The notes under the pieces are model-generated. The model did no database searches and had not been told where the DNA came from. It worked only from the letters and a program-made list of their open reading frames with translations. From Marsupella aquatica (taxonomy: Eukaryota > Plantae > Marchantiophyta): 64,000 bases of DNA. Location: assembly GCA_973895155.1 (NCBI GenBank), contig OZ316892.1:20895619-20959618 (forward strand), given 5' to 3'. Shown piece after piece: positions 1 through 54,747 of this stretch (the first letter of the stretch is position 1; the number at the start of each line of letters is the position of its first letter). The position numbers and the translations under genes are program-made.

Positions 1-2775
1 TGCCAGAAGAGTGCATCGACTTTGCCACCTCAAGTGGTGATGGTGGAACTCCTGCAGAATTGGAATCAATTTTATCTCTCACCGACACAACAGCTTCCAT
101 TAATGTCTTGAAGTTCACATGGAACAAGTCAGTCAATGAATTCAAACGTTCATTGATCTCTGGAAGACATGTTTCGACAGCCTTCAAACGACCACTTATC
201 TCTGTAAGTGAAGATCCACCTCCCTACATGACACAGGGGTATAGGTTCAATCACTCCATATGAAATGTTGGGCAATATATGCACAATCAATGTTATATAC
301 AGTGTACACCTGAAATTCAACGCAGGTCATTCAATTACCAATCAGAACTCATATAACTTACATGCTTGGAGGATTTAGATGCACCCTCTTGAGCCCGGGT
401 GTTCACAATTTCAGCCCTCAACTCTTCTTTTGAAGGGCTTTGCCCCAATTGGGCTTTCTGCACATGCATGACAAACACAAGTTATCGATCAATATTCAGG
501 GAACGTACACTAAAACAAAGTTTACATGTATGGGTTTACACTAAAAAACAGTACATAGTGTAGCATAAATTACATAGCTAGGCCATTCATTCTTACCAAA
601 CGTTTAGCTGTTAGTGCAGTGCCGGTCCTTCCTGTCAGATTAGGGTTTTGAACACTCAACCTGGCCTCGGTCATCTGTGAACTCTTCTTTTTTGAAGCAT
701 CTGTTACAAAATAAGCTACTAACCTTGCCCACACTTTATCATCACAACTGGCTGGTGGAGGCATATCTGGCTTCTCCCCACCTTCCTTCCAAGCCTTATG
801 CATTCTCCACCTCTCTTGCTTGATGATTTTACCTGCTGTACTCTCTAGGCAACCTATGTCCACGCCATCATCACTGCCCACATAATTCCATTTGGCAGCA
901 ACATTTTCACATACAGTCTTCCAATCTTTTGGATGCTGTTTTTTAAAATTAATAACACTCACATCTAACCAACGCAATACTTCAGCTTTCAAATCAGCAT
1001 GCCATCGGTTCTTGCGAGGACACTCAGCATCCACCCATTGTCTCTCATTCAACTTTACGTTCCCTTTCTTTGTCACCTCCCCTCGTGCACTGCTCTCGGT
1101 AGTACTGGGCGTTGTATTGGCCACCCCTTCATTCACCCTACCTGGGGTTCTGAAGCCACCTGGGAAAATACAATGCCATTCATGCTTGAGAACTACATAT
1201 AGCAGAATGGATGATGGCAACATTCAATGCTTCACTTCAAGAAAAATTCTTCAAACATACATACCTGTAGCTCTGCCTGTAGATGCCTGTGCAGGGACTG
1301 CACTCTGAAATTGTTGCAACCCTGGACCACCTGTCCAGCCTAGTACAGGGGCCGGATGATGTCACTTTCTAGGTATGTGTGTGCAAACATATGTACTGAA
1401 AACTAAGTACAAACTATAGGAAAACAACTGAACATTCACCGACATACCTGTCCCCCTTCCGTGCTGCGTCTGCATAGGGGCATTAGTGAATACTTGAGTC
1501 GATGGTTCGACTGTCCAACCTGCACACATACATTTTCTATCATTATACATGTGCAGAGTCCCCCCCACGTGAATGGACTCCACGTACATATAATGAGTTC
1601 TTCCATTGCTGACAAGATCAGACATTACCTGCCCCTCTTCCAGCGTTTGTAGGTACTGAATTTTGATATCCCTGCCAATTACCTTCACCACCTTCCCAAC
1701 CTTGTTCATTCCACGACCCACCACCATCCTCCCAACCTGGTTCAACCCATGTCTGTCCTTGTGGACATTGGAACTGATCATTACTAGCATTTGCCCAATC
1801 AGGTTGGGCAGAATCTGCATGCAATGGCAGGTGGACAAAATTTCATGTTGTCTGAATCCAATACATCCCAAACAATGTCAAAAATTGATATGCAGTCTGA
1901 AATTCAGGAGTGCCATGCCTTCACAAAGAACTGGCATATAGATATATACTCACATCCCCATGGTTGAGGTGGACGTCCATACCCACGAGATTGTGGGTTT
2001 GGACCTGCTCTGCCTCTACCACGGGCATAACCTAGAGCTTGCCCCTTGCCATAGTATTGTGGCACCAGCCTGGGATCTACCACTACTACCACCTCGCCAA
2101 CCTTGATCAGAGGTCAGCCCCCCTGCTGCTATGGTGCATGCACAGGCTTCGAAGGCAAAACAGAACTGGCAGGACGCTGCATCACATCACCAACTACAAT
2201 GTCAGGAACTAAGCAAGGTACATATGTGTAGTACTGAACATATGAAACCTCTAAACAAGAGTTTTTAACTCAAAACCTTGTTGGGAAAACTACTTACCTG
2301 TTTCTTTTGGGGCTGCTCTGCAATGTATTCATCTTCACAACCCCCATCCTCATCCATTTCCTCTGGAAAATACTCATCATCTGCATCTTCTTGTCTAGTG
2401 TCTGCACCCACCTGTGCAGCATCAATGTCATCTCCACATTCTGCCATTGTAGGTACGACCTTCTTGCTCAACCTGTCACTTCGACGCACAGGCCCAGAGA
2501 TAGTGCTGGTCACCCTTCTTGCGTACTCCTTTTGTTTCTTTGAAAATGCTGTGGCTCTGCGACATTCCAATATGAGAATACAGTCACAATTTCAGTGCCA
2601 CATTGAACTATTCATGTCACACAAACTCAGCGGAGGGGTGTAGTTGAGAATCGTTCCCTTACAATTCAGCCACATCCTTTTCCAGATCCAGTTCTGCGAT
2701 TTTGGCTTTCACGTATGCTCGTTGTTCCATAGCTTTCCTTTCATACTCACACATCTCTGTGTCACTCTGTTCCAT
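1..2775 (-). CDS. CACTA TnpA-like (Ptta/En/Spm, Transposase_24-like) multi-exon gene, 3' end outside window
   Basis: ATG at 2775 (MEQSDTEMCEYERKAMEQR); GT-AG-bounded exons in ORFs 2659-2859, 2265-2570, 1618-1824 and 570-1223; motif CDDKVWARLVAYF..KKKSSQM..AR..TGRTG..L, next exon KAQLGQSP; lies directly downstream of TnpD. Confidence 0.75.
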
Positions 2776-2931
2776 CCTACTGGACCACAAAAACATGTCA
2801 TCTATGGTCACCCCGTATAACACAATGCAACCACAATCACCAGGCATCCATCCATACATCTGTGTTGCTTCAGAATTACTTTATTACACATCCTTCCCCT
2901 CACTAATGTCCATGCAAACAATTCACATTAC

Positions 2932-5900
2932 TCATGGCACAGGCACACTGTTGGCATCTGCATCTATGAATTCGCCTCCTTCAGCAAATGCATCTACCCT
3001 TGTCACAGGAATGAAGTCCCCGCTATCATGAACTACAGGCACTTGGTCTGAATGCCGACGATCAAAGGCACTATGAGAGTGTAAATGAAACTCAAGGTTT
3101 GATCCTTCCATCCGACGTTGCCTGGCCTGTTTATGACACACTACACGCCAACCTGGGGAGTCTTCCACATCCAGGAAGAAAGCTTGCTCCACCTGACTAG
3201 GAAACACAAATGGCTCAGACCATTCGGGCAATTTCCCTCTGAAATTGGCCAGCAAGAAACCGTCGTTGTCTCTCTTCATGGTAGCCCTATTACCAAGCCA
3301 ATCCTGCCGCACCCATGAACCTTTCATAAGAATCACAGGACTGGACACCGCCCCATAGTCCAGAGCCCATATGTCAACTAATTCTCCCACATATCCCATC
3401 TCCATCCAGGCCCTGTCGTGATTGTGGCTCTGTTGCTCAAATACAGTGATGAGCCCGCAATCATTCGTCAACCTGTAGGCACTGTCACCATCCTTCACTC
3501 GGAAGTGATTCCCATATGCTCTCATCCGTTTGTAAGTCTTCACTTTCAGGCTAGGGGCATCAAACAGTAGGTAAACATCTGCATCCATGTCTGGGTGGGT
3601 CTCGTGATGCTCTCTAATTGCCACTCTGATCCACTCCATGAAACCTGGAAAAGTTGTTCTTGCAGTGGGATGGGCCGCCTTCAATGACTCATACTCCCTG
3701 AATGAACAACCACACAGCATTAGCTTGGGTAAACATGAACAGGCTGAAGGAGAAAACCACACGAACACAACATTTAAGCTCATGAACTGGATTATAGCAC
3801 ATGTATGCACTCACTGTATCCAGGGTTCGATCCATCACCACAGTGTTGTGCAATACAAAGTCATGTGCCAAGTCTCTCATAGATATGGTCAGGTTCTTTG
3901 TGGTTGCAGCCCCTTCCAGTACTTCACCTATCACCCCTTCCTCCTCATCAGAATTCCACACCCTGGTCTTCACATGCTCATATTGTGCTATGTATTCGGT
4001 CAGAAATCCCAGAGTCTCATCCTTGATGTAACCTTTAGCCATGCTTGCTTCAGGTTTGTAATATGTTCTCACGTGACCTTTGAGTAGCTTCATGTACCGT
4101 TCCAAAGGGTACAACCAACGAGCACTCACAGGCCCAAATTGGTGTAGCTCTTCCACAACATGGACAAGTAGGTGGGTCATGACATCAAAAAATGCGGGAG
4201 GAAAATAAATCTCCAGGTCACACAGCACCTGAGCGACATCTTCTGTCAGTTGTGGGAAGTGTGTTTCATCCCAAACCTTCACACAAATATGATGAAACAC
4301 ATCACTGAGTCGCATGATCACAGTACGAACAGGCTTCTGCAACAGGCCCCTCAGGCATAAAGGCAACACCTGTTGCATCAACATATGGTAGTCATGGCTT
4401 TTCATACTACCAAGCTTTCTAGTCATGATATGCTTCTTGAAAGCACTGCCATAGTTTGAAGGAACCTTCAAAGAACTCAACCTCTGCACAAATAGTTCCC
4501 ACTCTGTGTCTGTCAGAACATAGGGCGCTTGGTACTTCAAGAGCACATCAGCTCTGTGGGCATGTGGCCTCAACCAAAGATGGGGTTTCATTCCCCTCTG
4601 TTCAAGATCCAATCTCACTGAACCAGTGTCTTTCTCTCCACACAAGAATCTGAGTAGACTCTCACAAATATTCTTTTCAATGTGCATAACATCAATGTTA
4701 TGTTTGCTTGGCTCAAACTCCTGCATCGTTGCAATGCAAAAGCGTCAGGAAATGCCTCAAGTTTAGTCTCTCTCTTTGAAATGAATGCACATGCTCTGAA
4801 ACAAAACATGTATCCCAATTAGCATCAACTCCAAGAGGCTTACCCTCCAGTACTTGAGCTCCAAGTCCAATATGCTCAGTCTTTTTACACCATATCGCTT
4901 TATTGGATCACTCACTCCATCTTCCCTGCCCCCTCGTTTGATATAGTCATCCCTCAGTGCTCCCCACTGCCTGATCTCCTCTTTGGTCACTCGTGCCGGG
5001 GGTCCACGTTGCTCAATCTCATTGCCAAAGTGTGCAATCAGTGCCTGTCTTTCTCTGTAAGGGTGATCTACCTTCAGAAAACGACGATGGCCCATGTATA
5101 TCACTTTCTGCAGGGCTCTGGAGTACTCACTGGTGACATTGCGCCCATAGATAGTACAAGCACAATATCCTTTTGTTGTTTGGCCTGATATCATCCCATG
5201 GGCTGGGTAGTCAGCTATAGTCAGAATGACAATGGCTCTAAGGATGAATGGGTTTAACCTCCCAAGCCTCTGTAGGACATCATATGTGAGAACTCCTTCC
5301 TCCCAAAGCTTTCTCAATTCCTCCACTAGGGGAGCCAGAAACACATCTATGTTGGCAGATACAACACTGTCTGGCCCTGGTATCAGTAGGACCATCAGAA
5401 CAAAAAATCGCTTTGTAGTCATCCAAGGAGGAAGGTTATAATTCAAAATAGTTACAAGCCAGCACGAAAATTTGTTGTTCTTGTCTCCAAATGGGTTTAC
5501 CCCATCCAATGACAGCCCAAGTCTGACATTCCTCGGCTCAGCAGCAAATTCGGGATACATCTCATCTATGAGTTTCCATTGCCTTGAATCTGCAGCATGT
5601 CGTTGTAGCCCATCATCACTTTTCTTGTCAGTTGCCCAAGTCATCATCTCCGAGATGGCACGGCTTCTGAACATCCGCTGAAGTCTGGGAATGAGTGGAA
5701 AATGACGAAGTACCTTGGCGGGAACCATAGACTTTCCTGAGTTCCGATACCTGTGCTTCCCACACTTAGGGCATGTCAACGATTCTTTATACTCCTTTCT
5801 GAAAAGAACATGCCCATCAGGACAGGCATGGATCGAATCATAGTTCAATCCAAGATTAGATATGCATCTTTTTGCCTTGTACATGTTCTTGGGCAAAATA

Positions 5901-6667
5901 TTACCATCTGGTAGCACAGTTGTTCGCAAGAATGCCAACAACTCAGAAACCAAAACGTTGGGGACATTGTGGTTGCCGCAAATGTTCAGGAACATGATGA
6001 CAAATCCCAGTTTAGAACATTTGCTACCGGGGTACAAAGACTTCTTGCCTTCCTGTATTTGCAGGGGAGAGCCAAACATCCCATCATGCCCAGGGGTTTC
6101 CTGCCCTATCTCAAACTCATCAAGAGGCTCTTCGACAGGGGGCACACTTGCATCTGCAGTCGTATCCTCTTCGTTGTCTAGCCCATCATGAAATGCATCC
6201 AAGTCTTGGAAGATGTCTCTCACCATCTCTTCCACATGAATTCCTTCGTCACGTGGTGCTGCCTGAGCACCATCCCGTTGGAGAGCTGACAACCCACAGA
6301 GACCAGCTACAACATTTTCAAATGCACCAGGCAGAACCTCACTTGCCCGTCTTGCAGCATTGGCAGCATCAAATTCTAACCTCCACTCCTCATCGGAAGA
6401 ATCTTCCTCTACAGGATCATTCCAAACTCGATGTCGTGGATCTCTTCCATGAACCGCGATATGCCGCCAAACCTCATTCAGACCCCTGGTACGGGATCCT
6501 TGGCAGATTGCACAAGGACATCTCATCCTACTGGCTCCTGAAAGTCTAGTTCGTAACCTTTCACGCTGCCAAAGCTTATTATCATGGCGTGATATCCTTG
6601 TGGGATGATGCAAAGGCAGTGCCTGTGCCCTGGGCTGGGTCTGGGGAGGGTGGTGACCAGGGTGCAT
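2932..6667 (-). CDS. CACTA TnpD transposase (Transposase_21 + DUF4218 + DUF4216), 2 introns
   Basis: IHACPDG..F, CPKCG, RHFPLIPRLQRMF, EPRNVRLGLSLDGVNPF, DVFLAPLVEEL, ADYPA (4763-6667); HNIDVMHIEKNICE, MKSHDYH, FFDVMTHLLVH, GPVSARWLYPLER (3689-4726); EPFVFPSQVEQAFF, WRVV (2932-3810). Introns at about 4844-4722 and 3813-3699. Confidence 0.96.
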
Positions 6668-7100
6668 TGTAACAGGCTGGGAGCTCTGTAGTCATGGACA
6701 GCAGTGAACAAGGATGCCTAATGGTGGTATTTGTGTTCCATATATCCCTGACTGTATCTGCCAAAAGAGTTAACATAACGTGTACTAAATTCTCACAAAC
6801 CCTAAACCACCCCAAAAGAAAAAAACAGGTTCGCAAGTAGTGTACCTATTGTCAAGTGAATGACACAAAATTCCTAAATGTTGGAGGGTGTCACCACCTC
6901 CTCCGCTGTCCTCAAATGTACCGCCTCTGCATGTACGTTTACAGTGACACCCCCAGGCAGCAGGAAACAACAATCCACCAACAGTAAAATAAGCCCAACT
7001 GCCACCAACCATAACAAGGTACATTAGTTCAAAGATCACATTTATTTCAATGATCTGATTTATACAAAAAAACTTGTGTCCAAACTGATGCTACTACTCC

Positions 7101-7973
7101 TCAGTCTGATTCCGAATCGCTAATGACCCATTCCTCACTTGTTGTCTCATAGTCCTCTCTGTAAGGATCCTGACCCTTCCGTGGCCAGGCCTCAAAAAGA
7201 TCATAGTCCATTGGGTTTTGACGCTTCCCAGCTGCTACTGATTCCACAAGCCAAGCATATGAAACCACAAACACATTATGGGACATGACATAAAAGCGAA
7301 TGTCTCCCTTCCCAAACTTGCGACAGGCTTTGGGATATGACTTAGTAATGACATGAGTGGTGTCCTCTGTTATATTCTCCTCCACTGTCCCACCTAGGTC
7401 AAGCACTGTGGACTTGTACACTTTGCACTTAACCTCTCCAATTCCCGCCTCCACAAATACCATGCTCAGCCCTTTCAGAATGGGGGTTGGTTGCTTCGTC
7501 TCCTCAGCCAACATACTCTTCAGCCTTGTAGAGCTCTGTCCTTTGTTGAGTACAGGTCCATATTGGAGATCAGCAAGCCGTGCCTTTGCTTCCCAGACTT
7601 CTTGTTCAGCCCAAGCTGATGCAGTAGCTTCTTCATCCTCCCACAACTCATATTGCTCAGTATCCTGTACAATCTTATGTGCTATGGAATCTGTGATCCA
7701 AGAGGCCTCAACTACTTTTAGGCCTTGCTTAGTAATTGCAGAATTCAAGTAGGACCATGACCACTTCTTTATCACTGATAGCCATGTCCCTGCAACAACA
7801 TGTGTAGTCTCTGTAGTGATGTCCTGAACTACAGTGCCATGGAGCTCAGAGAATCATTTCTGTACAGTTGGCCAATGCACTTTGGTCAACCCATGCTGGC
7901 CATGGACCAAAATCGCTCTGACCCCTGTAAACATTGTTGGGTGGTCACACTTTCTACGTTTCCTAGGCTCCAT
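7101..7973 (-). pseudogene. Tandem BRCT-domain gene with one premature stop
   Basis: ATG 7973 MEPRKRRK..MFTGV..VQK*FSELHGTVVQDITTETTHVVAG..VVEASWITDS (BRCT1), then ILKGL..LGGTVEENITEDTTHVIT..VVSYAWLVES (BRCT2). In-frame TGA at 7854-7856. Confidence 0.85.
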
Positions 7974-8565
7974 GTACACACACCCTACGTGATGACAGTG
8001 AATTTTGGAAGAATGGGTTCACCTGACAATACAAGGACAACAAAATTCCTGCTTTTTGAGTTGATCTGGCCCACTGGTGCTCAGGTCCGATTTTGATAGG
8101 TACAAGGGATATGTGAACAATACGTACTAGGCACCTGCACGGATGCAGGACATTGTTTGAATATATACTACAAAATCCATATCCGTGGTGAAATGAAGTG
8201 CAACCAACTTGTCATGGCACATACATATTTTGTTGTAAAGGAGGATACATTCAATGACAAACTTATAGGGCAATTTGATTAATTGCATGCCTGATAATTT
8301 ATACGCTTACAACTTAGAAGTCCTGTTTTAATTTAGCAGTCTGATGAAAGTGTTTATGAAAATGACCACTCAGCCTAAATACTTCCAAGAAGGCTTGTAA
8401 GGATAAGTTTGTATAGGCATGTACCCAGCCACTGACGCCAGAGCACAAGATAAGTGCTGCCTATATAAACTCGCCTACCCAACTCCTTTTCAAAATTGGA
8501 ATCTCTACAATCTCAAAAAATAGTACATCCACATCAGGTGCACTGTGCATGTACAATGTCCAGCT

Positions 8566-9245
8566 TCACAGCCAAGATATGTGATCTCTCACAGGAGTGC
8601 GCGAGGTAGGATCAATGGCATGGCGATGACAATAAAATATCCATCGATCAACACCATGTGCAGAGTGATCATAGATTTCTCTGTCACAAGCATAACCCTC
8701 TGCTTGATGATCTTTCAGGCAATGATAGTGCCACATAGTGGGACACCTAGCACAGTGGACTATGTCAGTCCAGTAGTCATCATCATGCTCACCACATGCC
8801 TTGCACCTATGAAGTGGGCAAGCTGTGGCATGAGCAGGCAAACACTCAAAACAGAAAAATCTCACACAAAAACGGTCTGGACATTTCCTAACATTTGCTG
8901 CAGCATCAACAGAGCCCTCATAGGACCCCAACTTCCCACACTGTGCACACTTAGCCTGCTTCTCCAAACAATCAGTGCACATCCAGTCTCCCTGGTGTGT
9001 TGACGGGAGGCCCACCCTGGACAGTTGTTTTCTGCAGCAAGGTCAGACTCCGGATTGAGGTGGAAATGCCTCATGCAAGGGCCCTCACAAATGACCAGGC
9101 CCCCACCATCGTCACAAATGGCACAACAATGAGCTGCCTTCTGGAAAATCTGACTTGCAAAGAAGTTAGTAGCATCTGCCCCAAGTACACCTGTGTTTCT
9201 CACCTCTGTCACACGCTTTTTGGCTTGAATTTTAGGCCGTGCCAT
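8566..9245 (-). pseudogene. EDM2-type composite PHD-finger gene, one frameshift near 9015
   Basis: CAICDDGGGLVICEGPCMRHFH (8862-9245) continues in another frame as WMCTDC..CAQCGKLGS..CPLHRCKAC..CARCP..HYHCL..FYCHRHAID..TPVRDH, the motif order of the EDM2 PHD region. Confidence 0.85.
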
Positions 9246-9260
9246 GCCTGCGCATGAGAC

Positions 9261-9472
9261 AGACTCTACAATTTAGCAGACTTCACAGAAAGTAAAATAT
9301 ATTTAGCATTTAAGGTACAAAGGCATTTAGATAGACTCTACAATTTAGCAGACTACACAGAAAGTAAAATATATTTAGCATTTAAGGTACAAAGGCATTT
9401 AGATAGACTCTACAATTTAGCAGACTGCACAGAAAGTAAAATATATTTAGCATTTAAGGTACAAAGGCATTT
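9261..9472. repeat. 72-bp tandem repeat, ~3 copies
   Basis: AGACTCTACAATTTAGCAGAC...AAGGTACAAAGGCATTT starts at 9261, 9333 and 9405. Confidence 0.95.
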
Positions 9473-10089
9473 GCTACTGCAATGAATTGGAATGGCCACA
9501 CAAGGATGTAGAGCACACATACTTTTGGTATGTTGAGCCCACACACAAAACTGATCCCCTAATACAATTTCTCCACCAACACCTTAATTTTAATTGTGGC
9601 TATGATTCACCAAAGGAGATCTGCAACAACATTTCATGCATTTGAATCACATACAATAGTCGTGACATGTAAAATAGGCATTCTTCGAAGAGGATTGGTA
9701 TGAAGCAGTGTCATAAGGGTTGAAATTTATACATCCTAAATAGGTTATGATAGTGGCTGAGACAAATAAGTGAGGCATAAATCACATTTTGCATATTATC
9801 ACATGGCCCATTAATTCATTCAACGTTGCAATGTTCACCAGGTTAAAGCAGTCATGAAAGCAGTCTTTCAATAGAGACTTTTATGCGAGTTTGCTAGCCT
9901 CTTAAATTAGGATATTTTGCTTAGTGCAGGCATAATAGGATATAAGTTATGTACTGTTGACCCTAAACCCTGGACCCAAAATTGCTCATACATCAAAATT
10001 TTAAGTAAATATCCTCTGTGTTGAAGTTAGAGTGTTAAGCTATAGGTCAATGGTATCTGGTCTGTGCATGCGGTGTGACAAGTGGTCCT

Positions 10090-13500: not shown

Positions 13501-13733
13501 AGGAAGGCAGGTGCACGGGCCACCGAGAAAAGTAAAGGATGCATGTGATTAGTGGGGAGGGATCTTAGCAAAAATAGGGGAAAGCAAGGGAACTTGCTGC
13601 TAAAATCAGCTGAACGATTGCACGGTTCCTATAAATTTAGTGGACCTTAAGGCCGTCTGTTCACCCCCCCACCCCATTGCCAGAGCACGGGGCACAAGGC
13701 ATGTTCTGATACAGGGAGGAGCAAAACAGTCAT

Positions 13734-22700: not shown

Positions 22701-22759
22701 AACCCAAGAGATATGAAGATTAAAATACTCAATAGTCATTCCAGACACCGGTCATAATT

Positions 22760-41621: not shown

Positions 41622-41850
41622 ATGCATAAATGGAGCAGGCTTACGTGTAAGGAATTGTGTGAAAACATTGATCAATGTTTAGAATCGACAATGTACACTC
41701 CCAAAATTGAGGAGTTGGATCTTACTGGGGAAAGCTTCTTCTGTATGGATGGGGATGATTGGCAACTTTTCTTTGACAGTGTGGGGATGAAGACATGGGT
41801 ACACAGGAAGAAGTTGAGGAGATGGGTGAATGAATGCAACGGGAGCAGCA
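41622..41850 (+). other. SAM (sterile alpha motif)-like domain
   Basis: WSRLTCKELCE..MYTPKIEELDLTGESFFCMDGDDW..VGMKTWVHRKKLRRWV fits the SAM consensus spacing. Confidence 0.65.
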
Positions 41851-44800
41851 ATATCGGAGTCACACAGCCATCACAGCTACAGCCATCACCGCTGCAGCCA
41901 TCACCGTTGCCGCCAATGAAGACACTATCTGAACGTGATACGAATCGAAAGGAGAGCTCTGGTGAAGAAGAGCACAAGTCTATCAGGCCTGCAGAAAATA
42001 CCCGCACTCCTGATGCGCCGGAGAGAGAGACGTCTATGATTGGTTCTACCAAGCATCATCAAGTAAGTTGTTTGTCTCCCGTGACATTAAATTAGCCTAT
42101 TGAAATCCATTGCGACCACGGCAAGGACCTCTTCTGATAATCACGCGAGGGCATCTAATGCAGTGCACAATGGTAGTTTCTTTGTTTGATTGAATACACG
42201 CTGATGTGTGTTTCGACGCTGCTATGCACAGTTCTATCCTTCGACAGAGGACATCTTCAATGTGACCAACAAATATGGAGGACGATCCATTCTGGCTTCT
42301 AAGCATGTAGAAGCGCACCAAGCTCACAAGGCAAATTACAGAACGGTGAGGAATTGGTTTGCGAATTTTGCCGCCGACAAGGAGATATACGAATACCTCA
42401 GTGCAGATTTCAAGTCTAACACAAAGACAAAAGAGAATTGTCGATTGTATGTTCAGAGTAGAATGCACGAACTTTCACCTCTCAAATTTGAGTGTCCAGA
42501 AACCGGATCTAAACATGAGATGCCTTGGCCAGAAAGCTTCCTGTTTGAGGTCATCAAGAACAGAAAGCATGAATGGAGGAAAGCAAAATGCAAAAATCAA
42601 GGAAGGTACGTACTGACAGATTCCCATTCATTAGTTAGCGCAGTGCCATTGATTTTGGCAATGAACTGTGTTCTATCTTTTGCAACTTGGAAATAACCTA
42701 GAAATACCCTGGAATTAACCTCAAGTACTTGCACTGAATTTCATTGCAGGTGCCATCCCTACGGCCCGAAAAAAGGAGCCGACTGATTTTGCAGATATGA
42801 AGGTAGAACCAGATGCAGATGAAGCGATTGCCATTGGACATGGACAATCATACCCAAAGATTTTTGTGGAACTTCGTGCGTATGCATTCAAGGTGACCTT
42901 GGTAGAATTGCAAATGAGAGACGCCGATAAGTCTGTAAGGTATAGGGGGCAGTACAGTGGAGAGGTCGTTGGTCGTGGAATACCAGAGAGCGTTCATGTT
43001 ATTAAGAAAGTGAGATGGTGGAAGATTAAGTTCATGAAGGCCTTGTCTGATGGTAATCCGTCATTGTTGGCGCCTTACTGGGTGCCATTAATGACACCTT
43101 CAAAGGGTCTGCAGATGGTACAATTTGGGCACTTAAAACCAATAAGTATGGTGCCATATACATATATAAATATATATATGCATTTACCAACCCTAGGTTC
43201 ATTGCATCGGAATGAATCTGCTTCTCCGGGTTCTGCAGGTTTTTTCATGTTGCCCAGTCGATATGTATCGAGAGGTAGAGATGTTGAATGAATGTGGTTT
43301 TCTACAATATATTTATATTGCAAGATTCCCTGGCACTCATGCACTGTCACTATTGATGTGCATGTACATATTGCAGGACATGTCCATTTTTGTTCCGAGA
43401 GCATATTGTTCCATGAGTCCCAATCTGGCTCATAAAGTATGCCAATCGTATTCAGGTCCCTCTCCTCAGGGTTCTGCTGTCTCAAGAAAGACCTCCAAGA
43501 GAGCGGGGTTACCGGAGATAGGTCCCTTTCCTGAGGGTTCTGCTGTCTCAGGAAAGGCCTCCAATGGAGCGGGGTTACCGGAGATGCCTGACGTTGAGGA
43601 AAATCCTCTTTCAAAACCGAAGAAGCGAGTGTTGGCATTAGCTGGCCATGAAGAAGATGCAGAGGGAGGGGCGGAAGTAGAGCATAGAGAGGAAAGCAAA
43701 GCAGATGATGCGGTCAGGTCCAGCGATGGAGAGCCAAGCGAGGATACTGAAGTACTGGATACCACTACATGCAGCCAGGAGAAAACATCGTCAACATCAA
43801 CTATCAACTTGCAAGTTGATTGCTTCACTACATCCACCCAACTTTACATTGAATCTGATGAGGATGATGAAGACACTAATATAAGGCCTAACGATCAACC
43901 GGAACCGGAGGTACTAGTATTTTGTCATCCTAGTTGCGTTCTTATATATCATACGTACGTAATTATAATTAAGACACCGAGTTTGCTTTATACTTATTTT
44001 TCAGGTAAAAAGACAAAAGATTGAGAGCAGTCCTGCAGGGGGAAACAACCCGCTACTGTCCAAGGTATATATCATATATCATTGTATGTATAAGTTTTGT
44101 ATATTGCAATTATTATAATGGCCTAAAAGTTCTATTGTAAGTGATGTATATGACTTTGCAATTCATTCTACTTTGAGCCTAGGTTCACCAATATATACAA
44201 TGATTTGCACATCCACATATGCATGGTAGGTTAAGACCGAGAAGGAACAAGGTGGAGTCCTTGCAAGCATTCGGGACCTAAATCAACCATTGAGTAGAGC
44301 ACGAAGAGGCAAGGGTCCGAACCCAGGCAAAGAAAACGTACCTTCATTTAGAGCTATTTCAACAAAGGTACAGGAGGATGCAAGGGAACGGTTGTTGACC
44401 TGCAAAAACATGGTATGATTTCTTATTTCCATCCATTGTAAGCCAGCAGTCTTTATTAGGTTGCAGCGATCATTGTGTACAATGTGTAGACAGAAACTGT
44501 ATGTGTGGAACGTACTCTTGTGGTCTCATTATGTGGTCATTATACTTGTAAGGCAAACCAGGAAGAAGTTTTGTGTGCTCAAGGAACCCGGTCGACGAGA
44601 AGTAACAAGTCCCAGGCTTCTGAAGACTCCAATATAGTAAGCATATACTGAGAAGTTTTGCACGATTCTGTAAATAATCATTTATAGCTTGTCATTGGTG
44701 TACTACCATATTTTAAAGCTCACCAAAGACTGTAACTTTTGCAGAATTTTGAAAAGCTCACCAAAGACGCCAAACTAGTATTGTGCATGAGAGCCATGGG

Positions 44801-45609
44801 TTTGATGAAGACCTGCGAAGTGGAGGCCAAATTGCGCACGTTTGTAGCAGATACGAACAAGCGGTCAAAGACTACCCCCAAGCCATTCACCAAACACGCT
44901 CAGAAGAATGCATCAGAGTTATTGGACATGGTGGCCAGGTGGATTGTAGAGCAGAATGTAGTGATCGTTACACATCTTCCGGCTTTAAATGCCAATGGCC
45001 AACAAAGGATCTTCCCTGAAAATGCTATGAAGAAAGCCGGGGAAGAGGTATAGTACTCACTACATAGATAGCATACCTGCATCGCTCTATGAACGGCACA
45101 AGCTAGACAGGTTATGAATATGATTGCATTATATATTGACCAAGGGCCACCACTACTTGCTTCGTGTTTCACATATATATATACATATATATATACATAT
45201 ATATATAGAGAGATGCTAACGTACTTAGTTTCTAATGTACAAATGAATGCTACTTAACTCACTGTGATCTTACTTACAACGCTATGAGGAAATGATTCAA
45301 AACCATATTAGAAATTTGATTTGCATAAGCTGGGCCCAATAAAGAACCTTACATTCACGATACCCATCGACATTTCATGGTATTCATTGGCAATATGACT
45401 GGATGGTTTTCGATGCAATTCATCTAGGGACGCCAGACATTTTTAATACCCCATTGGTAATACGTGAGGATCCCCCAATACCCCACAATACATAGGCGTT
45501 ACATCGTGAATCCCCACTTCATCGTAGGCAATTTGGACGATGCGGATGCACATTATCCTGGAATTTGACGATGCGGATGCAATTTGACGCAGCAAGAAGC
45601 CTGGAATCA

Positions 45610-46425
45610 AAAATACCCTACAAATACCCCACGGTATGCAGGTAAAATGCACAAGTAATCCCCGCTCCGACATAGGAAATCTGGACGGTGAAGATGCATA
45701 TCATCCTGCAAACCTCCAGGGCTGTTAGCAAGGCCACCTGGAGAGTGGCAATTGGAAGTGGCATACAAATACCCCAACGATACCCCAGGGTATGCGGGTA
45801 ATATGCACACAGAACCCCCACTTTACAACAAGAAATTTGGATGGTGGAGATGCATATCATCCTGCACACCTCCAGGGCTGCCAGCGAGGCCACCTGGAGA
45901 GCGGCCATTGGACGCTGACAACCCAAATACCCCAGAGATACACAAATGTATGCGGGTAATATGTACACGGAATCCCCACTTAGCCACAGCAAAATTGGAC
46001 GGTGGAGATGCATATCATCCTGCGCACCTCCAGGGCTGCCAGCGAAGCCACTTGGAGAGCGGCAATTGGACGCTGACAACCCAAATACCCCAAAGATACC
46101 CCACGGTATGCGGGTAATATGCACACGGAATCCCCACTTTACCACAACAAAATTGGATGGTGGAGATGAATATCATCCTGCACACCTCAGCGAAGCCACT
46201 TGGAGAGTGGCAATTGGACGTTGACATCCCAAATACCCCAGCGATACCCTACAGTATGCGGGTAATATGCACACGGAATCCCCACTTTACCACAGCAAAA
46301 TTGGATGGTGGAGATGAATATCATCCTGCACACCTCAGCGAAGCCACTTGGAGAGCGGCAATTGGACGCTGACATCCCAAATACCCCAGCGATACCCCAC
46401 GGTATGCGGGTAATATGCACACGGA
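45610..46425. repeat. Intronic 148-158 bp tandem repeat (~5.5 copies)
   Basis: GTATGCGGGTAATATG anchor at ~45634 (variant), 45790, 45948, 46105, 46254 and 46402. Confidence 0.93.
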
Positions 46426-47499
46426 TGTTGCGGAGAGCGCGACCATCCAAGGACCTGGATTATGCCAACTGCCTTCGGCTTATACAAATAAACACGCAAA
46501 TGTGGGGAAATGCGGAGGCGCTAAACCCTTATGTAGTTGGGTATATTACGGGAAACGCCCCAAATGTCACGCCTGTGGGACACATAGGCAAATTACCCCA
46601 GGGAAACGTCGAACTGCTAGAAGTATCAAATCCCTCGTTATGTATGGGAAAGCATGGGTATTTTCAACCAAATTCCCTAAGATGTCAGGAATCCCCACTT
46701 CTTTGTTATGGTACACTGATTCACCAAGTCAGGTGGGGAAATCCCCAACTCCTCGACCATGCATATCCTCCTTGCACAGACAACAACCGCAATGCAACAA
46801 TTATTGTTGAATCCAATGAGAAATCCCAATGGATGAGACTTCTTGTGCCAATAAAACTCTACTCAACTTTACTTAAGGTTGAGTGGATGGCTCGATTGGA
46901 GATAAGCGTAGCTGATAAGGGATTCTTCCCGGATGGGGTAACAATTGATCAGATGTTTGAGAAGACTCATTCTCAAATAAGTGGAGTTGACCTGGTGTTC
47001 GGATTTCTATATGTAAAGAAGCACATGCATGACAATCCAGACAGTGTGGACCCTCCATCTACTTGGAGAGTTCAAAGGATGATTAAAAAGGCACATTTCT
47101 CATATGAGCAGGCAATCGACAAGAGTTTCATTTTTTGTCCAGAGTTTCAAGAGGCCGCGTGCCGGACGTGGATTTCAGAGATGAAGAAAAAAGAAGCAAA
47201 GCATAAGGCAAAAGAGAGAAAGAAGACAGTGGAAAGAAGCGCGCAATCAAAGACAGAGAAGAAACGGAAGCTTCGAGAGCTAGTTGTGCAAGAAGAGAAA
47301 CAATCTGGGACTTGACGCTGTAAGAAGATGGCTTCAAAAAAGGATGACGATGAGGGTCCAAAGAAAAAGCAGACAAAGAAGGCAAAGGTTGCAAGATCAA
47401 AACTAATGCAAGCGTCGACATCAAACTTTGTCTTGCATCCAGAGGATGATAGGTGTCCAATAGAAGGACCCGAAGAAGATGATGTGCTCAAAGGCCAAG

Positions 47500-48095
47500 A
47501 AGTTTTGTGTAATATTGAGCAATATTATACTTTTGGCATCCGCAAAATTTTTGATATTCCTGTCAAAAGTATTATTCCGCCATCGGCCGTTTTTGTATAT
47601 CGAATGTTCAATCATTCGCATGCAATGGAGATATCCAAGTCTATGATGAAAAACCCTGGACAGGAACCACAAGTTGCTGATTTGATTCCGTATTGCGAGA
47701 GCACTCAACAGTTGCTTCATTATGACAACACACCTCAAGATAGGAAAGAGTTTTTGATTGGTGTGAAGAAGCAGGAGATCCAATTCCTTGCCACCAGTGG
47801 CCAGCATTCTGCAAGAGCTGCCCAATGGATCCAAGGGTGGGCCGACACTGATGCCAAGTTGACAGATCTAGCCAACAAACTAAAGTATAGGAAAGCAAGG
47901 ATCCTATCTGACCTCACTCCGAAGACAATTTTGGTTGAGCATTCAAGTTTATCGAACGCTGTGAATAATAATATGCAATTTAAGTCTTGTTTTTTAGAGA
48001 CTATTGTTCATGCAAGAAGGCAATTTGAGGAGTGCGGGAAACCGCCGCGTCCAGGGATTGGGACCAATCAAAATATAGACAGGAAAAACTATCAG
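47500..48095 (+). other. ParB/Srx-like domain
   Basis: FDIPVKSIIPP..VYR..N..H..ISKSM..PQVADLIP..FLATSGQHSARAA; GQHS occupies the ParB GxHR box position. Confidence 0.6.
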
Positions 48096-48159
48096 GTACA
48101 TTTCTGAGCAAGGCAATCTATTCTTGATTCCCTTTGATTAAAGATTGGGGTAGAGGTTT

Positions 48160-48345
48160 GCCTCGCCCTTAGGGCGAGGCTACTTGTCTTGTTTTCCTTG
48201 GTTAGAATATTAAAGCAAATGCTTGCCTTGCCCTGAGGGCGAGGCAACCTGGACTAGTCTCTCTAAGAATATTGCTTGAGTTCCATTTCTGTCAATTGCG
48301 GTTGGATGCAGAAGTTTGCCTCACCCTTAGGGCAAAGCGGCCTAG
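48160..48345. repeat. Three GC-rich palindromes in an intron, Helitron-3'-end-like
   Basis: GCCTCGCCCT-T-AGGGCGAGGC (48160-48180); TTGCCTTGCCCTGAGGGCGAGGCAA then CTAGT (48223-48258); degenerate third copy then CTAG (48315-48345). Confidence 0.7.
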
Positions 48346-49099
48346 CCTGTTTCAAACATCTAGATATAAACTTTCTACCATATGCATTGTACCCTGAAAC
48401 CAATGTCAAGTCCATTGGATATGCAGAATTGGTTTTTCCCTGGCAAAGGTCACAATGGGGAAGTCAAGCCTGAAAAGCATTTACTGGTTACTTTTTGCTG
48501 AGGATGAGCTCTTTGAATTATGGCAGAATGTGTGTGGAGAATGGTTGAGTGGGAAGCTCCAAGATGGTGTTGGTGGGTATGGAGGGCCAAGACCCCCCAA
48601 ATCGATTGTTCCCGGTACCTTTCAATGCTTTGAAGGAGAGATTAGTAGTGAACAAATAATTGAGATCTTGAAGGACGTTCAAGAGGAGCGTGCCTTGATG
48701 AAGAAGGATATCACCAACAAATCAGAGCTTGTCGCAATGGGAGACTTGGCACTTACAATCAAGATAATGTCCAAACTGAGACATTACTGGCTATTTTGCG
48801 GAAAAGTATTGTGAGAAGTTTCCTGTTGGCACATCTTGGGAGTCTCTAGTGACGTTGTTGCCTTCCTTGAAATCTGAGCTTGAGATGACAAAGTTGAGGA
48901 GAGCAGCGGGTGAGGTTTACCTCAACAATTTGTTGAAGAAGAACGTGGTCAAGGAGAGTTTCCCGCAAAGTCTGATGGTCAGACTAGATGGGTTGTATTG
49001 TAAAGAAATTAGTGGGATTGGTCGTTCTCGCACGGAGCCTTTCTTGACATTTTTTAGTGATAATTTGATGAAGACGACCAGGCCGGAGATGCTACAAGA

Positions 49100-49800
49100 G
49101 CCTTCGCCTTTGTGTCCTCTTGCCATTGTTGACTTCAGTAGGCTCCGACAACATGTTTGGACTGATTCTGAAATTATTGCATTACTGCAATACATTGTGG
49201 ATCTTCCAAGAAATCCAACAATTGTTGTTGTCATGACTGTGCATCCGGGGCCACTTGCTGCAAACATTTTGAGTGCCCTTAGGAAATTGCAGCATGAAAA
49301 GGGAATGGACATCCACGTTGATTACGGGAGCTATCGATAGAGTGATACACCAGTTCCAGAGGGCTTACTTTTCAATTGTGGTATGGAGGAGATAATCTTT
49401 GCAGGAATCACCACTGAGGAGAAATTTGATTGGAAGCAAGTGTTCAGGCCTGGATTTAATTGCCAATTTTCTTACAATTCAACGATAGACCTTGATTTCC
49501 AAGTGGGAGACAAGATGGAGAAGCGAGATAAGAATAAGAGTAAGACAAGTAAGGAGACAGAGGCCGAGTCAACTGTGACATTTCACATTGGAGATTTCTT
49601 GCGAAAGGCTCCCATGTTTGAGATGGCGGGAAGTAGAGGTGGCTTTCTGAATATTCACGCTAAGCCAAAATATATGCTGTAGAGTATTATTGAATTTTTT
49701 TCGACTGAAGGGGAAACTATCCTTGACTTTTTCTCGGGAGGACAGGTTATGAAGGTGTCCTTGTTGTGTTTCAGAGAATGCTTTGCGTATTCAGACATTG
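49100..49800 (+). other. Beta-class N4-cytosine/N6-adenine DNA methyltransferase-like domain
   Basis: Reading through the TAG codons: ..EEIIFAG..NIHAKPKYML*SIIEFFSTEGETILDFFSGGQVMKVSLLCFRECFAYSD matches the N6_N4_Mtase C-terminal pattern KP..L..II..S..G..VLD.F.G. The upstream catalytic-motif position reads LAIVDFSR, not (D/S)PPY. Confidence 0.7.
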
Positions 49801-51057
49801 AGGATGAATATGATTTCACTCAAGCATATGGAAGGGTTCTGCGAGAAGGTTCCTTCCATAATGAGTCACGGGATGGGCGGTTCCAAATTTGGCAGATCCT
49901 GCGATGTGGTTTCCGAGCGTGTTGGCGCCAAAGAAGGCGTAGAGCAGGGTGAAGATGAGATTGAGGAAGGAGAATTGGGTCACGACACAGACGATAGGGT
50001 CACCAGAAATTTGGATGAACGTGGAACACAAGTGGTAGGTACTCCCTACTTTGGTGTGGGGTTGATAGATGTTGTGGGTCGACCTGAGGGCGACCCACCA
50101 AAAAATCCCTTTGCCGGTGTAGAGAATTGGATGCACCAATCGGACCCAGATCTTACATCGTCCACATTGGACACACAATGGAAGGCAACCGCAGGTGATC
50201 TAGGTAATATTGGCAGAGTAGAATTGGAAGAAATGCCAGACATTGCGCTTGCAAAGGAGGATGATCGCCAAGTGCCTGAGACCGCAGCACATGAAGAAGA
50301 GAAGGCAGGTGCTTCAACTCCTCCCCTGTCTCCTCTATATTGCTCATTAGGGAGTAAATTGGTTTTACAAGTGCTTCTACAGGAAGCCCTGTAGTATTAT
50401 CATTTTCACAAAATTCTGGATCTGAGATAGGCAGGACTGGATATATGAAAATAGTCCGTCGTGCAACTCATTTTATATGGAGAAATGGACCAAAGGTTGG
50501 AATGATAGAATCACTAGACAAAGGTCCAAAGATAATGGCAAAATAAGATTACAAAAAAATGAACTTGAGATTGAGCCTAGTTTTTGCACCCCCATCCTTT
50601 GAAGAGCAACTTCCCAGTGGCATCAACTCTGAGATACAGAGTGTTCTAGGTGATCAGACAATAGATGAATTTGGGCATTTTAACATCGGAAATTATTAGC
50701 CTTTTCTTTGGTTCTTGGTATTTTAATGACAATCTAAGCTTTATCTTTGTAATAATATACTTTTTTACAGACCAAAGTTGCGTCGTAGAATCTCCTTCCT
50801 CAAATGACTTTAATGGCATTCCCTCGGAAAGCGTTGTTGTGGAGGAAGAGTTTGACCCAGGTATACCTTGGATCTAAAAAATAGCAAATTTTGAATGTAT
50901 TTGTTTTTCTAGGAGGGTCGCTCGCCCCAGGGTCGTTCCTCTCTCCTTCAAATGTTATAACAAAGTTTGTTTGATTTCAAATTTTGAGATTTTTCCTCGG
51001 TAGTAATTGTTTAAACTTTGAGTCACATTGACTAAGGGCTTATTTTAATGTTTCCAG

Positions 51058-52000
51058 ACTTCACTCCAATACTACACTCTCCGATCCGGCGAAAGCTCTT
51101 GGTTCTTGATCTTAACAAGATTTGTTGGGATTGCATTAAGACCAGAAGCTCAGGACCATGGCAAAATCAGACAAGTTTACGTGGTGTGCACTGGGGGAGA
51201 CATGGAGGGTTTAATTTCATGTATGTGGAGCGCCCCTACCTCCATGAATTTCTATATGCAGCTTTCATGGCTTTTGACGTCGCAATTTGGACCTGTGCAA
51301 GGAGGCCAAAAACAATGGACTTAATGGAGATGATTTTCATTGAGGAGGAGCGACAGAAGTTCAAGTTTGTCTTTACTCTAATAGTTGCATCCAAAGGTCA
51401 GATATAAGAGACGGGAAGGCCAACTTACTTTTGAAGAATCTGCAAACCATTTGGGACCGTTTTCCAGAAAAATATGATGCTTCTAATACAGTTCTTATTG
51501 ATGATTCTCCATTGAAGGCATTTTTGAATTATGACGTGAATGGATTGTTTCCAAATCCATTTACTCACACAGCTTCAAATGACACTTTTTTGCCCGAGAT
51601 ATTATGGCCGTATCTTTGCAAATTGAGAAAGGCCTATTGTGTTCAACATTATATCACTGTCAACAATCCAAAGTGGTCTGTTTTCAATTTATTAACAAGC
51701 AAGGAGGATCATGCTGCCATCTATGCTCTTTTGGAGGTGAAGTGGGGAGATTGTCGTTGTATCCATAAGGAGTTTGGAACCATCTTGGATGTGACTCCTG
51801 AAGAGATTCCTTGGAACGGAAAGGAGGAGGTCCAGCATTACCCACCACTAGAGATGTGGACCACGGATGAGATCAAAGAAACTGCAAATGCTATACTTGG
51901 AGACAACTATTCTGGTCCTCATAGACAAAATAGAAGGCATTTTATTTGGAAAGTTCTAAGAACTAGGGATCTCACCAATAAGTTTAAGAACATCATGTGA
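51058..52000 (+). other. FCP1/NIF-like HAD phosphatase domain
   Basis: KLLVLDLN, ERPYLHEFL..FDVAIWT, LKNLQTIW, NTVLIDDSPLKA; frameshift between ORFs 51048-51407 and 51431-52000. Confidence 0.88.
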
Positions 52001-52549
52001 GAGATACTTGCAACCGTGACATCTGCTATGATTAATTAGGAAGCAGACTTTCTTGTTCAAATAAGTTTTGTCTTCAGTTGATCATTAGGAGATAGGGTTG
52101 CTCTAGTGCCTACCCTGAATTGTGCATTCATATTATGTCAAAGGATATGTTTTGAACATGTAGGATAAAGTAAACAATTAGAATATGCTTAGTGTGAGGC
52201 TCTCTCACTAGACTAGACAATTTATTAATTATATTGTGGGTCAATCTCATTATGACCCTTGATTTATCATCATAGATATTTTTAATCTATGGTTTGAGTG
52301 GTATTGGCCTCTGATTTTTGGACTGAATCAAATTTACTTTAATTTATAAATTAATTAGAATATATGATTTAATTTATTATTAAACATTTGGGTGAAAAAA
52401 ACAAAAATTTGGGCATTCAAAAGTGCATATTTGGGCTAAAAAAATTAAAAAATGGGAATGATTTAAAAGAAATTTGGCCTGAAAAAAAACAACTTTAGGG
52501 TTCATATTTTGGACTTTTAAAAGTACAGTTTTAATGAATATAGTGATGT

Positions 52550-54747
52550 TTCCTTTGCCTTTGGATCAATGAAATTCAACCATGGTGACAATTTTGGCAA
52601 GTCACTCCAAAGCCGTATGACTTGGGAGTGATTTCCCCAAGGTTCCATCATGCCTTAAGTAAACAAAAAAATATGGCTCCAAAGTGTTCATGGTGCAACT
52701 AGTCGTTGGACAATAGCACTGGGTATAGTGTCCCGCACTTAGTGGAGAGGTTTCCACCTTCATGCAGGGCCCCATGGCACACTAGGGCCCACCCAAAGCT
52801 CCTAGACCCAAAGGGTCATTTCTGCTGGTACATAATGATGATATTTGTAGTCATTGGTTTTTTTGAGACAAGTATATTCATAAGTGACGGAATGAAGGCC
52901 CTAGTACCTCCAAAAAGAGCCCACTCTAGATTTCTTCCAAAAGTGGAATAAAACCCTAAACCCTTAGACCCTCATGCATATGCACCATAGTAAGAGGGAA
53001 GCACCACAACCATGCCCATTCCATTGTTGTAGCACTACCTCTTGGAGAAACGAAACAAATGGCTCCATTTGCCTTTGGAACATAAAATATTCATCCATGA
53101 TGACGCTTTTGGCAAATCACTCCAAAGTTATATGACTTGGGGGTGATTTCCCCAAAGTTGCATCAACACCTTAGGTAAACGCAAAAACATGTCTCACGAT
53201 TAATGATGGTGCAACTAGTGGCTAGAGAACAGTAAGTAGAGTGTCCAGCACCTTGTGAAGGGGTTGTTGGCCCCCCATGTAGTCCCTATCCCCAAACTGG
53301 TAATTTGTACTTCTCCTAAATGACTGCACAAGGGACCCCTCAAATCACCACAATTCATGTCATTTGACTTATATGATATCCAATGTGACCATTTTAATGA
53401 CCCTACTTGTAGTCATTGGTATTTATGACTGAACTTTGTTTGGAAATGACCCAATGAAGGCCCTAGCTAGTACCTCAAAAGAGAGCCCGCTCTAGATTCC
53501 TTGCAAAATTGTCCGAATATTCCTATAATTACCCTAAACCCGCACCCACACCATACAAGGAAGCACGACTCCCCTGCCCATTCCATTGGTGCAGCACTAC
53601 CTCTTGGAGAACCCAAAAAAATATTTTATTTGCCTTTGGATGTGATGGTATGCATCCATGGTGACACTTTTGGCAAATCATTCCAAAGTCGTACAACTTG
53701 GGAGTGATTTCCCCAAAGGTGCATCATGCCTTAAGTAAATGCAAAGACATGTGTTCAAATTGCTAATGCCGTAACTAGTGATTGGACAATGATGAGTATA
53801 GTGTCCCGCACACAGTGGAGGGGTTCTCACCTCTATGTAGGGCCCATGACACACTCGGGCCCACCTTAAGCTCGTAGACCAAAAATTGTCATTTATGCTG
53901 GTCCATAATGACACCATGAGGGATGTCTTGAATGACAACTTATATAGTCATTTGGTCAAAATTAATGACCTCTAATATGACTATTGACATTACCCTTATT
54001 GCAGTCATTGGCATTCTTCAATGACTCTACAATTATGACCGGTGTCTGGAATGTCTATTGAGTATTTTAATCTTGATATCTCTTGGGCTCTTTAATGACT
54101 CTATAAGTAGTCATTTATGCAATGATTTCATAATGACTGTATGTTATTGTAAACATTGATATATATCGTGATTTTTAGATTGACCCTATATTTAGTCATT
54201 TATGCGACAAGTCCATAATGACAGTATGTTGTTGTAAACACTGATATATGATAATTTCAAGATTGACCCTAGAGTTAGTCATTTATGAGAGAAGTCCATA
54301 ATGACGGTATGTTGTTGTAAACACTGATATATTCTTATTTTGAGAGTGACCCTAGATTTTGTCATTTAACACCATTGGTTAAAATGACGAAAATATATTT
54401 TTGTCATTTATCACCGTTGTCCAAAATGACCCAAATAGATTTTTGATCATTTCAATCATTGTCCAAAGTGACTATAATGGTGCTAAACACTGATTTATCA
54501 TGGTTGTTATTTATTGGGTCATTTAGGACATGTGTCTAAATTGACCATTTTAGGAAAATTGTGTCATTTTGGTCGCATCAGACATTATACAAAATGACGC
54601 AAAAGTTATCATTTTGTCATTTCAGTCTATTGGTCATTGTGGACAGTCATTCTCTCGTCATTCTTTTTGTGTCATTAGAAATTTTGGTCATTGATTCATT
54701 TCCATCATTGGATGATTGGTCATAAAGGGCCCTGTTTTCTTCTAGTG
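52550..54747 (-). repeat. CACTA end: TIR and subterminal repeats, inverted homolog of 21871-~24600
   Basis: First 35 nt identical to 21871-21905 in reverse complement; 63-bp repeats and ~3 diverged copies of the 578-bp unit. Confidence 0.96.

Follow-up and report, generated by a model that had tools for sequence, protein, structure and literature searches.

A stretch of 64,000 nucleotides from the liverwort Marsupella aquatica (assembly GCA_973895155.1, contig OZ316892.1, positions 20,895,619 to 20,959,618 of the forward strand), hereafter the window and numbered from its first letter, contains two transposase genes of the EnSpm/CACTA type, several termini of the CACTA type and a number of accessory genes. 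A previous reading made from the letters alone (the sequence-only reading) had assigned all of these, up to position 54747, to one giant cargo-carrying CACTA transposon. A search for sites where CACTA/G precedes dense ATGAC motifs gives three ends, at 21871, 35102 and 54747; nevertheless, the window has four CACTA-type ends and not three, and the additional one, at 16552, was overlooked by the sequence-only reading. The termini are the following:

16523 to 16552, minus strand: C-type end, CACTAGAAGAAAACCACC...GACC, with the flank ATG
21871, plus strand: A-type end, with the flank TAA before it
35102, minus strand: B-type end, with the flank TAA after it
52548 to 54747, minus strand: A-type terminal arm, with 578-bp and 83-bp arrays, subterminal ATGAC motifs and the terminal inverted repeat (TIR) CACTAGAAGAAAACAGG
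54747, minus strand: A-type end of this arm, reverse complement CACTAGAAGAAAACAGGG, with the flank GCC at 54748-54750

All four ends start with CACTA/G, have short TIRs and share CACTAGWAGAAAAC. The end at 16552 reads CACTAGAAGAAAACCACCCATTCTGAGACC on the minus strand and, as the other three do, matches the pattern CACTAGWAGAAAAC-N12-GACC with 0 mismatches; no other site in the window comes closer than 4. The number of such matches expected by chance is 0.0014 for the 14-mer alone and 4e-6 when GACC is included. A scan of viral sequences with the end pattern gave 7 contigs, about the chance level. Immediately inside the 16552 end lies the following gene (E, expectation value):

16553 to 19712, minus strand: second, divergent EnSpm/CACTA transposase (Transposase_21, E 6.5e-7), with two in-frame stops and with 150 or more C-terminal residues cut off

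The 14 long homologues of this second transposase comprise 8 from Riccia sorocarpa, 5 from Adiantum nelumboides and 1 other. In 8 of them the alignment ends at 16551-16593 (2 end earlier and 4 have no match in this exon), and all 8 run on with a mutually homologous tail of at least 150 residues; run against all six reading frames, a profile of this tail detected nothing in the window (best E 1.9). Given that the homologue alignments stop there and that the tail is absent from the window, the second transposase is cut at 16552. Since this end cuts the gene, everything to its left is an insertion, designated element II, which sits within the second transposase of element I, the older of the two. 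That the 16552 site matches the pattern by chance, within a coding frame, was rejected in view of the pattern match and the homologue alignments. A small element ending at 16552 was also rejected, for two reasons: no CACTA/G preceded by ATG occurs to its left in the window, and the missing transposase tail is absent from the window.

From these results it is proposed, with a probability of about 0.6, that the window holds three nested CACTA/EnSpm cut-and-paste elements and not one giant transposon:

1 to 16552, minus strand: element II, younger and high-copy, at least 16.5 kb long, with its other end left of the window
16553 to 54747, minus strand: element I, likely one unit, older, with 24,960 bp visible once element III is removed and the rest left of the window
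21871 to 35102, plus strand: element III, complete (13,232 bp) and nested in element I

Element III has an A-type left end and a B-type right end, dense ATGAC arrays at both, and a 3-bp target duplication (TAA/TAA). The A ends at 21871 and 54747 are complementary at 95% over 169 bp and at 90% over 650 bp; however, their pairing was rejected because their flanks disagree (TAA versus GCC), whereas those of 21871 and 35102 agree. The claim that 54747 is an unpaired CACTA end partnered by TnpD and TnpA holds only for its first half: the end is real and, like that at 16552 (ATG), it has no target-site partner (GCC) anywhere in the window, but the assignment of the two genes to it is not confirmed, since the 16552 end intervenes. 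It was also claimed that no ordinary intact host gene lies in between, and Pfam profile searches found none. One overlooked terminus can therefore fuse nested elements into a false giant.

No transposase was found in element III, and the 26-34 kb stretch has no Pfam match of note. Its interior (26000-34300) has no recognisable coding and contains duplications (27250-27468/31253-31461 and 32438-32677/33271-33520), as well as a GC-rich block at 28.9-31 kb. A 578-bp unit is repeated several times in both A-type arms (22772-25484 and 52548-54015). The strong depletion of CpG (observed/expected 0.2-0.3) and of CHG (0.3-0.5) in these arms, measured over bins of 2 kb, is suggestive of heavy methylation.

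The genes of element II are listed below; depths refer to public sequencing run X3, described further on.

570 to 1223, minus strand: TnpA-type exon (Transposase_24, Pfam E 1.9e-4, below the cut-off) of a gene that runs on left of the window
2932 to 6691, minus strand: TnpD transposase (Transposase_21, E 2e-67; DUF4218; DUF4216)
7101 to 7853, minus strand: tandem BRCT domains in an open frame (Pfam BRCT, E 9e-13, two stretches; weak BRCA1 matches)
8566 to 9272, minus strand: NSD-type multiple PHD fingers (PHD-1st_NSD, PHD_NSD and PHDvar_NSD; E 3e-6)
10090 to 10569, minus strand: Cys/His-rich open reading frame (ORF), with a summed depth of 6452-8216 at 10254-10263, the highest in element II
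11541 to 11886, plus strand: captured 3' part of the host gene RPL18A, frameshifted (Ribosomal_L18A, E 1e-5; depth 1344-2362)

TnpD and the second transposase are 23% identical over 273 columns, with two Asp motifs in register. A TnpA-type ORF belonging to element I would be located left of the window. The window copy of TnpD has a 4-bp insertion near 3827 and a Tyr in place of the second Cys of a C(2)C motif, and that of the PHD gene has one frameshift near 9014; the dominant contigs in the sequencing runs are free of both TnpD lesions and of the PHD frameshift. The NSD-type PHD models match, and the PHD fingers may resemble those of EDM2. EDM2-like proteins are described, in the part of the source available, as combining PGR and ELP domains with atypical PHD repeats (PMC7529245). 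The Cys/His-rich ORF has no Pfam, PHROG or NCBIfam match, and it may be a further accessory gene common to several subfamilies. The RPL18A fragment is amplified together with element II and is located where the depth starts stepping down.

The right-hand part of element I contains the following features (MTase, methyltransferase):

36080 to 36541, plus strand: 153-aa ORF with a resemblance, by eye only and unconfirmed, to an OB fold of the RPA70-C type
41622 to 45053, plus strand: spliced gene with a SAM-like first exon (by eye), followed by an exon shared with Adiantum transposase gene models
45611 to 46425, no strand: tandem array of about 5 copies of a 158-bp unit, immediately 5' of the ParB-like gene
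46422 to 50700, plus strand: decayed ParB-like/MTase gene, with a ParB/DndB-like domain (SGQHS), a helical linker, a beta-class MTase fold (DFSR; DFFSGG), an acidic linker and a conserved C-terminal domain
51036 to 52000, plus strand: NIF/HAD phosphatase-like exon (NIF, E 3e-7 and 5e-7), motif DLNKI, frameshifted, depth 455-527

In Adiantum gene models, a transposase of the second type is followed by sequence to which the exon at 42.2 kb is similar (BLASTP, E 2e-7); the exon beats all 300 shuffles in 4 of 5 Adiantum models and in 0 of the 3 Riccia models tested. This match ties the right-hand genes to the second transposase and not to TnpD. Together with the fact that no further end was found between 16553 and 54747, it makes it fairly probable that the second transposase belongs to one element of about 27-30 kb together with the OB-like ORF, the gene at 41.6 kb and the ParB-like/MTase/HAD gene. 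The right end of this element is likely that at 54747, which leaves about 25 kb in view, and its cargo would be the ParB-like, methyltransferase-fold and HAD domains. Between 39800 and 40500, inside element I, there are also degenerate 43-95-bp tandem repeats with the core CAGCAGCGCAGC.

As for the domains announced by the sequence-only reading, TnpD, the TnpA-type exon (below the cut-off), the two BRCT domains, the NSD-type PHD fingers, the second Transposase_21, the NIF/HAD exon and the methyltransferase fold are present at the places where they had been put. The remainder fared less well: the OB-like ORF has no Pfam (Rep_fac-A_C) or PDB match, the SAM-like exon has no match to a SAM profile or to the PDB and its likeness is by eye only, and the ParB-like domain obtained weak matches to DndB. 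The SAM-like exon looks like a gene separate from the ParB-like/MTase gene, with the 158-bp array in between. The description of the cargo as near-full-length is overstated on the right side, where the window copy of the methyltransferase/HAD gene has at least 4 in-frame stops and at least 3 frameshifts.

Translated through its stops, the MTase matches PF01555 with E 1.2e-3. A model predicted from 53 sequences (predicted local distance difference test, pLDDT, 84) has a permuted fold with motif IV before motif I, and its top structural matches are CcrM, MboIIA and PvuII (Z 17.3, root-mean-square deviation 3.5, 210 aligned), with the rotifer N4CMT also matching (Z 15.8). On this model, the fold is that of a beta-class amino-MTase. 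Motif I is DFFSGG and conserved. Motif IV, assigned from the strand position in the model and the LAIVD pattern, is DFSR, DFAR, DLAR and similar; xPPY occurs in 0 of the 34 family rows covering it, and its first residue is acidic in all 34 (32 Asp, 2 Glu). At E 0.001 the family comprises 61 representatives, of which P0074 proved to be an unrelated bacterial repeat protein and was dropped. The motifs are kept over 60 clusters at 21-61% identity. All named members are from liverworts (5 Calypogeia fissa contigs and 4 Riccia sorocarpa loci), and in an intact homologue of 1009 aa, P0089, a single frame spans the ParB-like domain, the MTase and the C-terminal domain. One Riccia member ends, by eye, in a HAD-like start. 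Outside this group, a scan of viral sequences with the MTase found no relative, a metagenome scan found one 1.8-kb contig without flanks, and a prokaryote scan found 5 loci in which only 26-51 residues matched, at motif I; the one locus inspected is by eye a type III Mod-like methylase.

SGQHS is invariant in 10 of 10 members of the ParB-like domain, and 3 of the 10 have weak DndB matches (E 0.005-0.04); its model has a pLDDT of 40, the fold search gave no Z above 4.4, and the atlas search no usable match. DndB is assigned to the ParB superfamily in the available part of a published account (PMC10853773). Against NCBIfam, the HAD exon scores 17 bits for FCP1 (cut-off 135) and 28 for HAD-IIID (cut-off 192). 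The FCP1/SCP phosphatases of the RNA polymerase II C-terminal domain have the motif DxDx(T/V). The modification of DNA or of this C-terminal domain, as put forward in the sequence-only reading, is accordingly doubtful on both counts, the MTase motif being DFSR and not xPPY, and the HAD motif DLN and not DxD.

Six public sequencing runs contain part of the cargo, none of them recorded as RNA. Depth, which is a rough measure and not copy number, was compared over 46.4-64 kb in 4 of the 6 runs and over 2-22 kb in 2 of the 6. In run X3, four 1-kb flank contigs have 0 differences from the window, which indicates the same organism, and depths of 16.9-18.4. Single contigs of TnpD and of the BRCT-PHD spacer are 1641-1782 deep (ratios about 100, 100 and 92) and differ by 0.2-0.7%; those of the second transposase are 165-215 deep (ratios 12, 10 and 9) and differ by 1.1-1.8%; contigs of the ParB-like/MTase gene are 474-480 deep (ratios 27 and 27) and differ by 5.3-6.8%. 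In run X5, 6 of 7 element II contigs differ from the window by 0.3-1.7%, and all 6 right-arm contigs by 4.6-7.4%. The cargo covered by these data (TnpD, BRCT, PHD, second transposase, ParB-like/MTase/HAD) is thus amplified and multi-copy and not a single host locus, and the element parts do not move in lockstep. That the genes are element-borne accessories was well founded: single-contig depth is about 9-100 times that of the flank, and several loci exist in Calypogeia and Riccia. The claim of one element longer than 54 kb with one toolkit was not, since the genes are split over at least two nested CACTA elements that differ in depth and divergence. Another record of run X3 (record 19, 48865-50510) represents a further MTase subfamily near 80% identity at a depth of 309, so that at least two amplified versions coexist.

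Several observations weigh against three nested elements, beginning with the 16552 end itself: GACC joined the pattern only after this site had been seen, the end is without a dense ATGAC array (4 TGAC per 400 bp versus 15-18 at the other ends, the window median being 3), and no listed contig spans the junction. One X5 contig of element II differs by 5.5%. In X3 the depth drops from about 1800 to 320-580 over 11.5-16 kb, reaching about 330 in steps by 15 kb, and is then about 835 just inside 16552; from this drop, most TnpD-BRCT-PHD copies are without the 5' arm of the window and carry other 5' arms, possibly of the A type. At the A end the summed depth (2075, position 54502) is similar to the value for the TnpD module, and other copies may join the two. 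No listed Riccia MTase locus tag adjoins a listed transposase tag, in a list that is incomplete. Among the listed MTase differences, 8 of 21 are synonymous, which fits neutral decay of the window copy. Finally, the second transposase and the MTase stand at 10x versus 27x depth and at 1-2% versus 5-7% divergence, a poor fit to one unit.

The likeness in depth between A ends and TnpD module would suit a compound in which the whole nest, cut second transposase included, is mobile as one piece longer than 55 kb, from 54747 to a partner left of the window; so would the lack of a partner for 54747 inside it, the single TIR class of all the ends, and a depth that declines inward from both sides. Such a giant is nonetheless very improbable, given that the second transposase is cut by the 16552 end, that the parts are tenfold apart in depth and in divergence, and that TnpD is about 3.7 times as deep as the MTase in X3, but nearly equal to it in X5. 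The mismatch between second transposase and MTase also means that element I may be a mosaic, with the MTase/HAD arm derived from an old element ending at 54747 and the transposase from a separate, younger one whose end, decayed or of another type, would lie within 35-46 kb. The MTase gene has more lesions than the transposase, which agrees with this arrangement, as does the depth of only 9-53 for contigs with the MTase alleles of the window. We consider it rather unlikely, because 35-46 kb holds no terminal-looking end-like site at 5 or fewer mismatches and the 41.6-kb gene is tied in Adiantum to the second transposase type.

Within the three-element arrangement, the function of the cargo can be addressed only tentatively. 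It is possible, although we would not put it above an even chance, that both cargo sets act as self-protection (anti-silencing) factors. Each family would be mobilised by its own DDE transposase acting on ends of the shared type. In element I, the ParB-like domain might bind tandem arrays of the element itself. The MTase fold, being without xPPY, might bind or flip bases without methylating them and so shield the element from host silencing by 5-methylcytosine, as a binding pseudo-enzyme in the manner of METTL14 or of the DIRS1 MTase domain. BRCT pairs engage repair proteins, and that of element II could bind phosphorylated ones so that the breaks made by the element are mended. Its PHD fingers could read histone marks and allow expression in heterochromatin; EDM2 itself binds H3K9me2, according to the portion of the report available (PMC7529245).

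It is unlikely, by comparison, that the MTase fold is an active enzyme whose new chemistry marks the DNA or RNA of the element. The whole beta-class fold is retained, the first residue of motif IV is always acidic, DFFSGG is conserved, and the domain is fused to a ParB/DndB-like one, all of which would suit an enzyme. However, xPPY is missing, and the available parts of two reports indicate that the change of SPPY to APPA abolished activity in the rotifer N4CMT (PMC8885841) and that the transposon-borne MTase domains of DIRS1 were judged inactive (PMC4738411). Equally, there is only a small chance that the cargo is hitch-hiking host sequence of the Pack-CACTA kind, of no use to the element. 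The frameshifted RPL18A fragment shows that element II captures host pieces, CACTA elements are known to capture gene fragments (PMC8978399, from the part available), and the cargo copies in the window are damaged. Nevertheless, the PHD and TnpD frameshifts are absent from the dominant contigs, and the conservation of the MTase motifs across 60 clusters, at several loci in two liverwort genera, fits long selection better than recent capture.

A bolder extension of the self-protection proposal, which we regard as improbable in its entirety, would be a CACTA lineage widespread in liverworts and their kin, in which a protein with a ParB/DndB-like domain, a rewired DFSR MTase and a HAD domain writes or protects a new self-mark, with a sister lineage that uses a PHD reader and a BRCT adaptor; anti-silencing would then have arisen independently of VANC. 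To our knowledge, VANDAL is the only plant transposon family for which an anti-silencing protein of its own has been demonstrated. The DFSR family is conserved, lacks annotation and has intact natural members, and it is therefore testable as a pseudo-enzyme or as a new base-modifying enzyme.

The sequence to the right of 54747 includes a repeat of very high depth (55800-57560; 8,000-28,000 in X3) that has no Pfam match; its ORFs resemble those of a non-LTR retroelement. A 115-bp piece of it recurs inverted at 40931-41043. The single-copy flank also contains a 230-bp tandem duplication (58532-58989, 93% identical), and a spliced host gene at single-copy depth occupies 61700-64000 on the plus strand. 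This gene has no Pfam or NCBIfam match, and its IHIRRTDK motif is reminiscent of alpha-1,6-fucosyltransferase-like enzymes; a paralogue near 87% identity is present in runs X1 and X2.

Epigenetic cargo is already known in the CACTA superfamily from red algae and fungi, and the two cargo-bearing families described here are real. A literature search that took in few subscription papers and neither Repbase nor preprint supplements found no such cargo described in CACTA elements of seed-free or other land plants. In angiosperm CACTA/En-Spm and Pack-CACTA elements, TnpD and TnpA are accompanied by TIRs with subterminal repeats and a 3-bp duplication, gene fragments are captured in the 5' region and internal tandem arrays occur, one element reaching 16.5 kb. 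The window has the same layout, with the 3-bp duplication seen at element III, the dense subterminal arrays at three of the four ends and the TnpA-type match below the cut-off. In contrast, in the available part of that report the only added domains are Transposase_24 and Peptidase_C48, and no PHD, BRCT or methyltransferase genes are described (PMC8978399). Marchantia DN4MT1 (10.1101/2021.02.12.428880) and rotifer N4CMT (PMC8885841) have the same permuted beta-class fold of bacterial type; however, as far as the parts available state, they are host genes with SPPY and proven N4-methylcytosine activity, whereas the family in the window has DFSR and is amplified within a transposon.

The proposed mechanism is modelled on VANDAL/VANC of Arabidopsis, also a plant DNA transposon, in which, on the partial account at hand, an accessory protein binds tandem repeats within its own element and erases silent marks; VANDAL belongs, however, to the Mutator superfamily, and its protein is unrelated and of experimentally shown function (PMC10398659). 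The fungal EnSpm, ESTA and Plavaka elements that carry TET/JBP share with the window the CMCT clade, the CAC..GTG ends and the 3-bp duplications, seen here at element III; their cargo, an epigenetic enzyme, is proposed to help them evade silencing. The enzyme is a different one, and no PHD, BRCT or amino-MTase cargo is described in the available part of that work (PMC12730594).

The sequence-only reading had suggested a plant analogue of giant cargo-carrying transposons. The fungal Starships are likewise large cargo-carrying mobile elements; nevertheless, in the partial accounts available they use a tyrosine recombinase, reach about 700 kb and carry cargo of benefit to the host, while those in the window have DDE transposases, span tens of kb and encode nuclear-function domains. 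The analogy is better drawn with the giant Plavaka (EnSpm/CACTA) of the red alga Bostrychia moritziana (17.4-19.1 kb), which in the available part of its description has three accessory genes next to tandem arrays, two of them for a DNA methylase (PF01555) and a ParB-like protein; its copies are mostly degenerate, self-modification is proposed, and PAG3 is proposed to bind the arrays of the element (10.1101/2025.02.11.637652). No Plavaka model is among the Pfam matches of the window. The parts also differ: in Bostrychia the methylase is fused to SET and the ParB-like protein to a 2-oxoglutarate oxygenase (same source, in part), whereas here the ParB-like domain and the MTase form one protein, followed by HAD. 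Motif IV here is DFSR, the transposase matches Transposase_21 and the element resides in a land plant. If self-protection is indeed the role of the cargo, the accessory-gene strategy of red algae and fungi would extend to land plants with different parts, namely PHD and BRCT domains in one family and ParB-like and methyltransferase-fold domains in the other.

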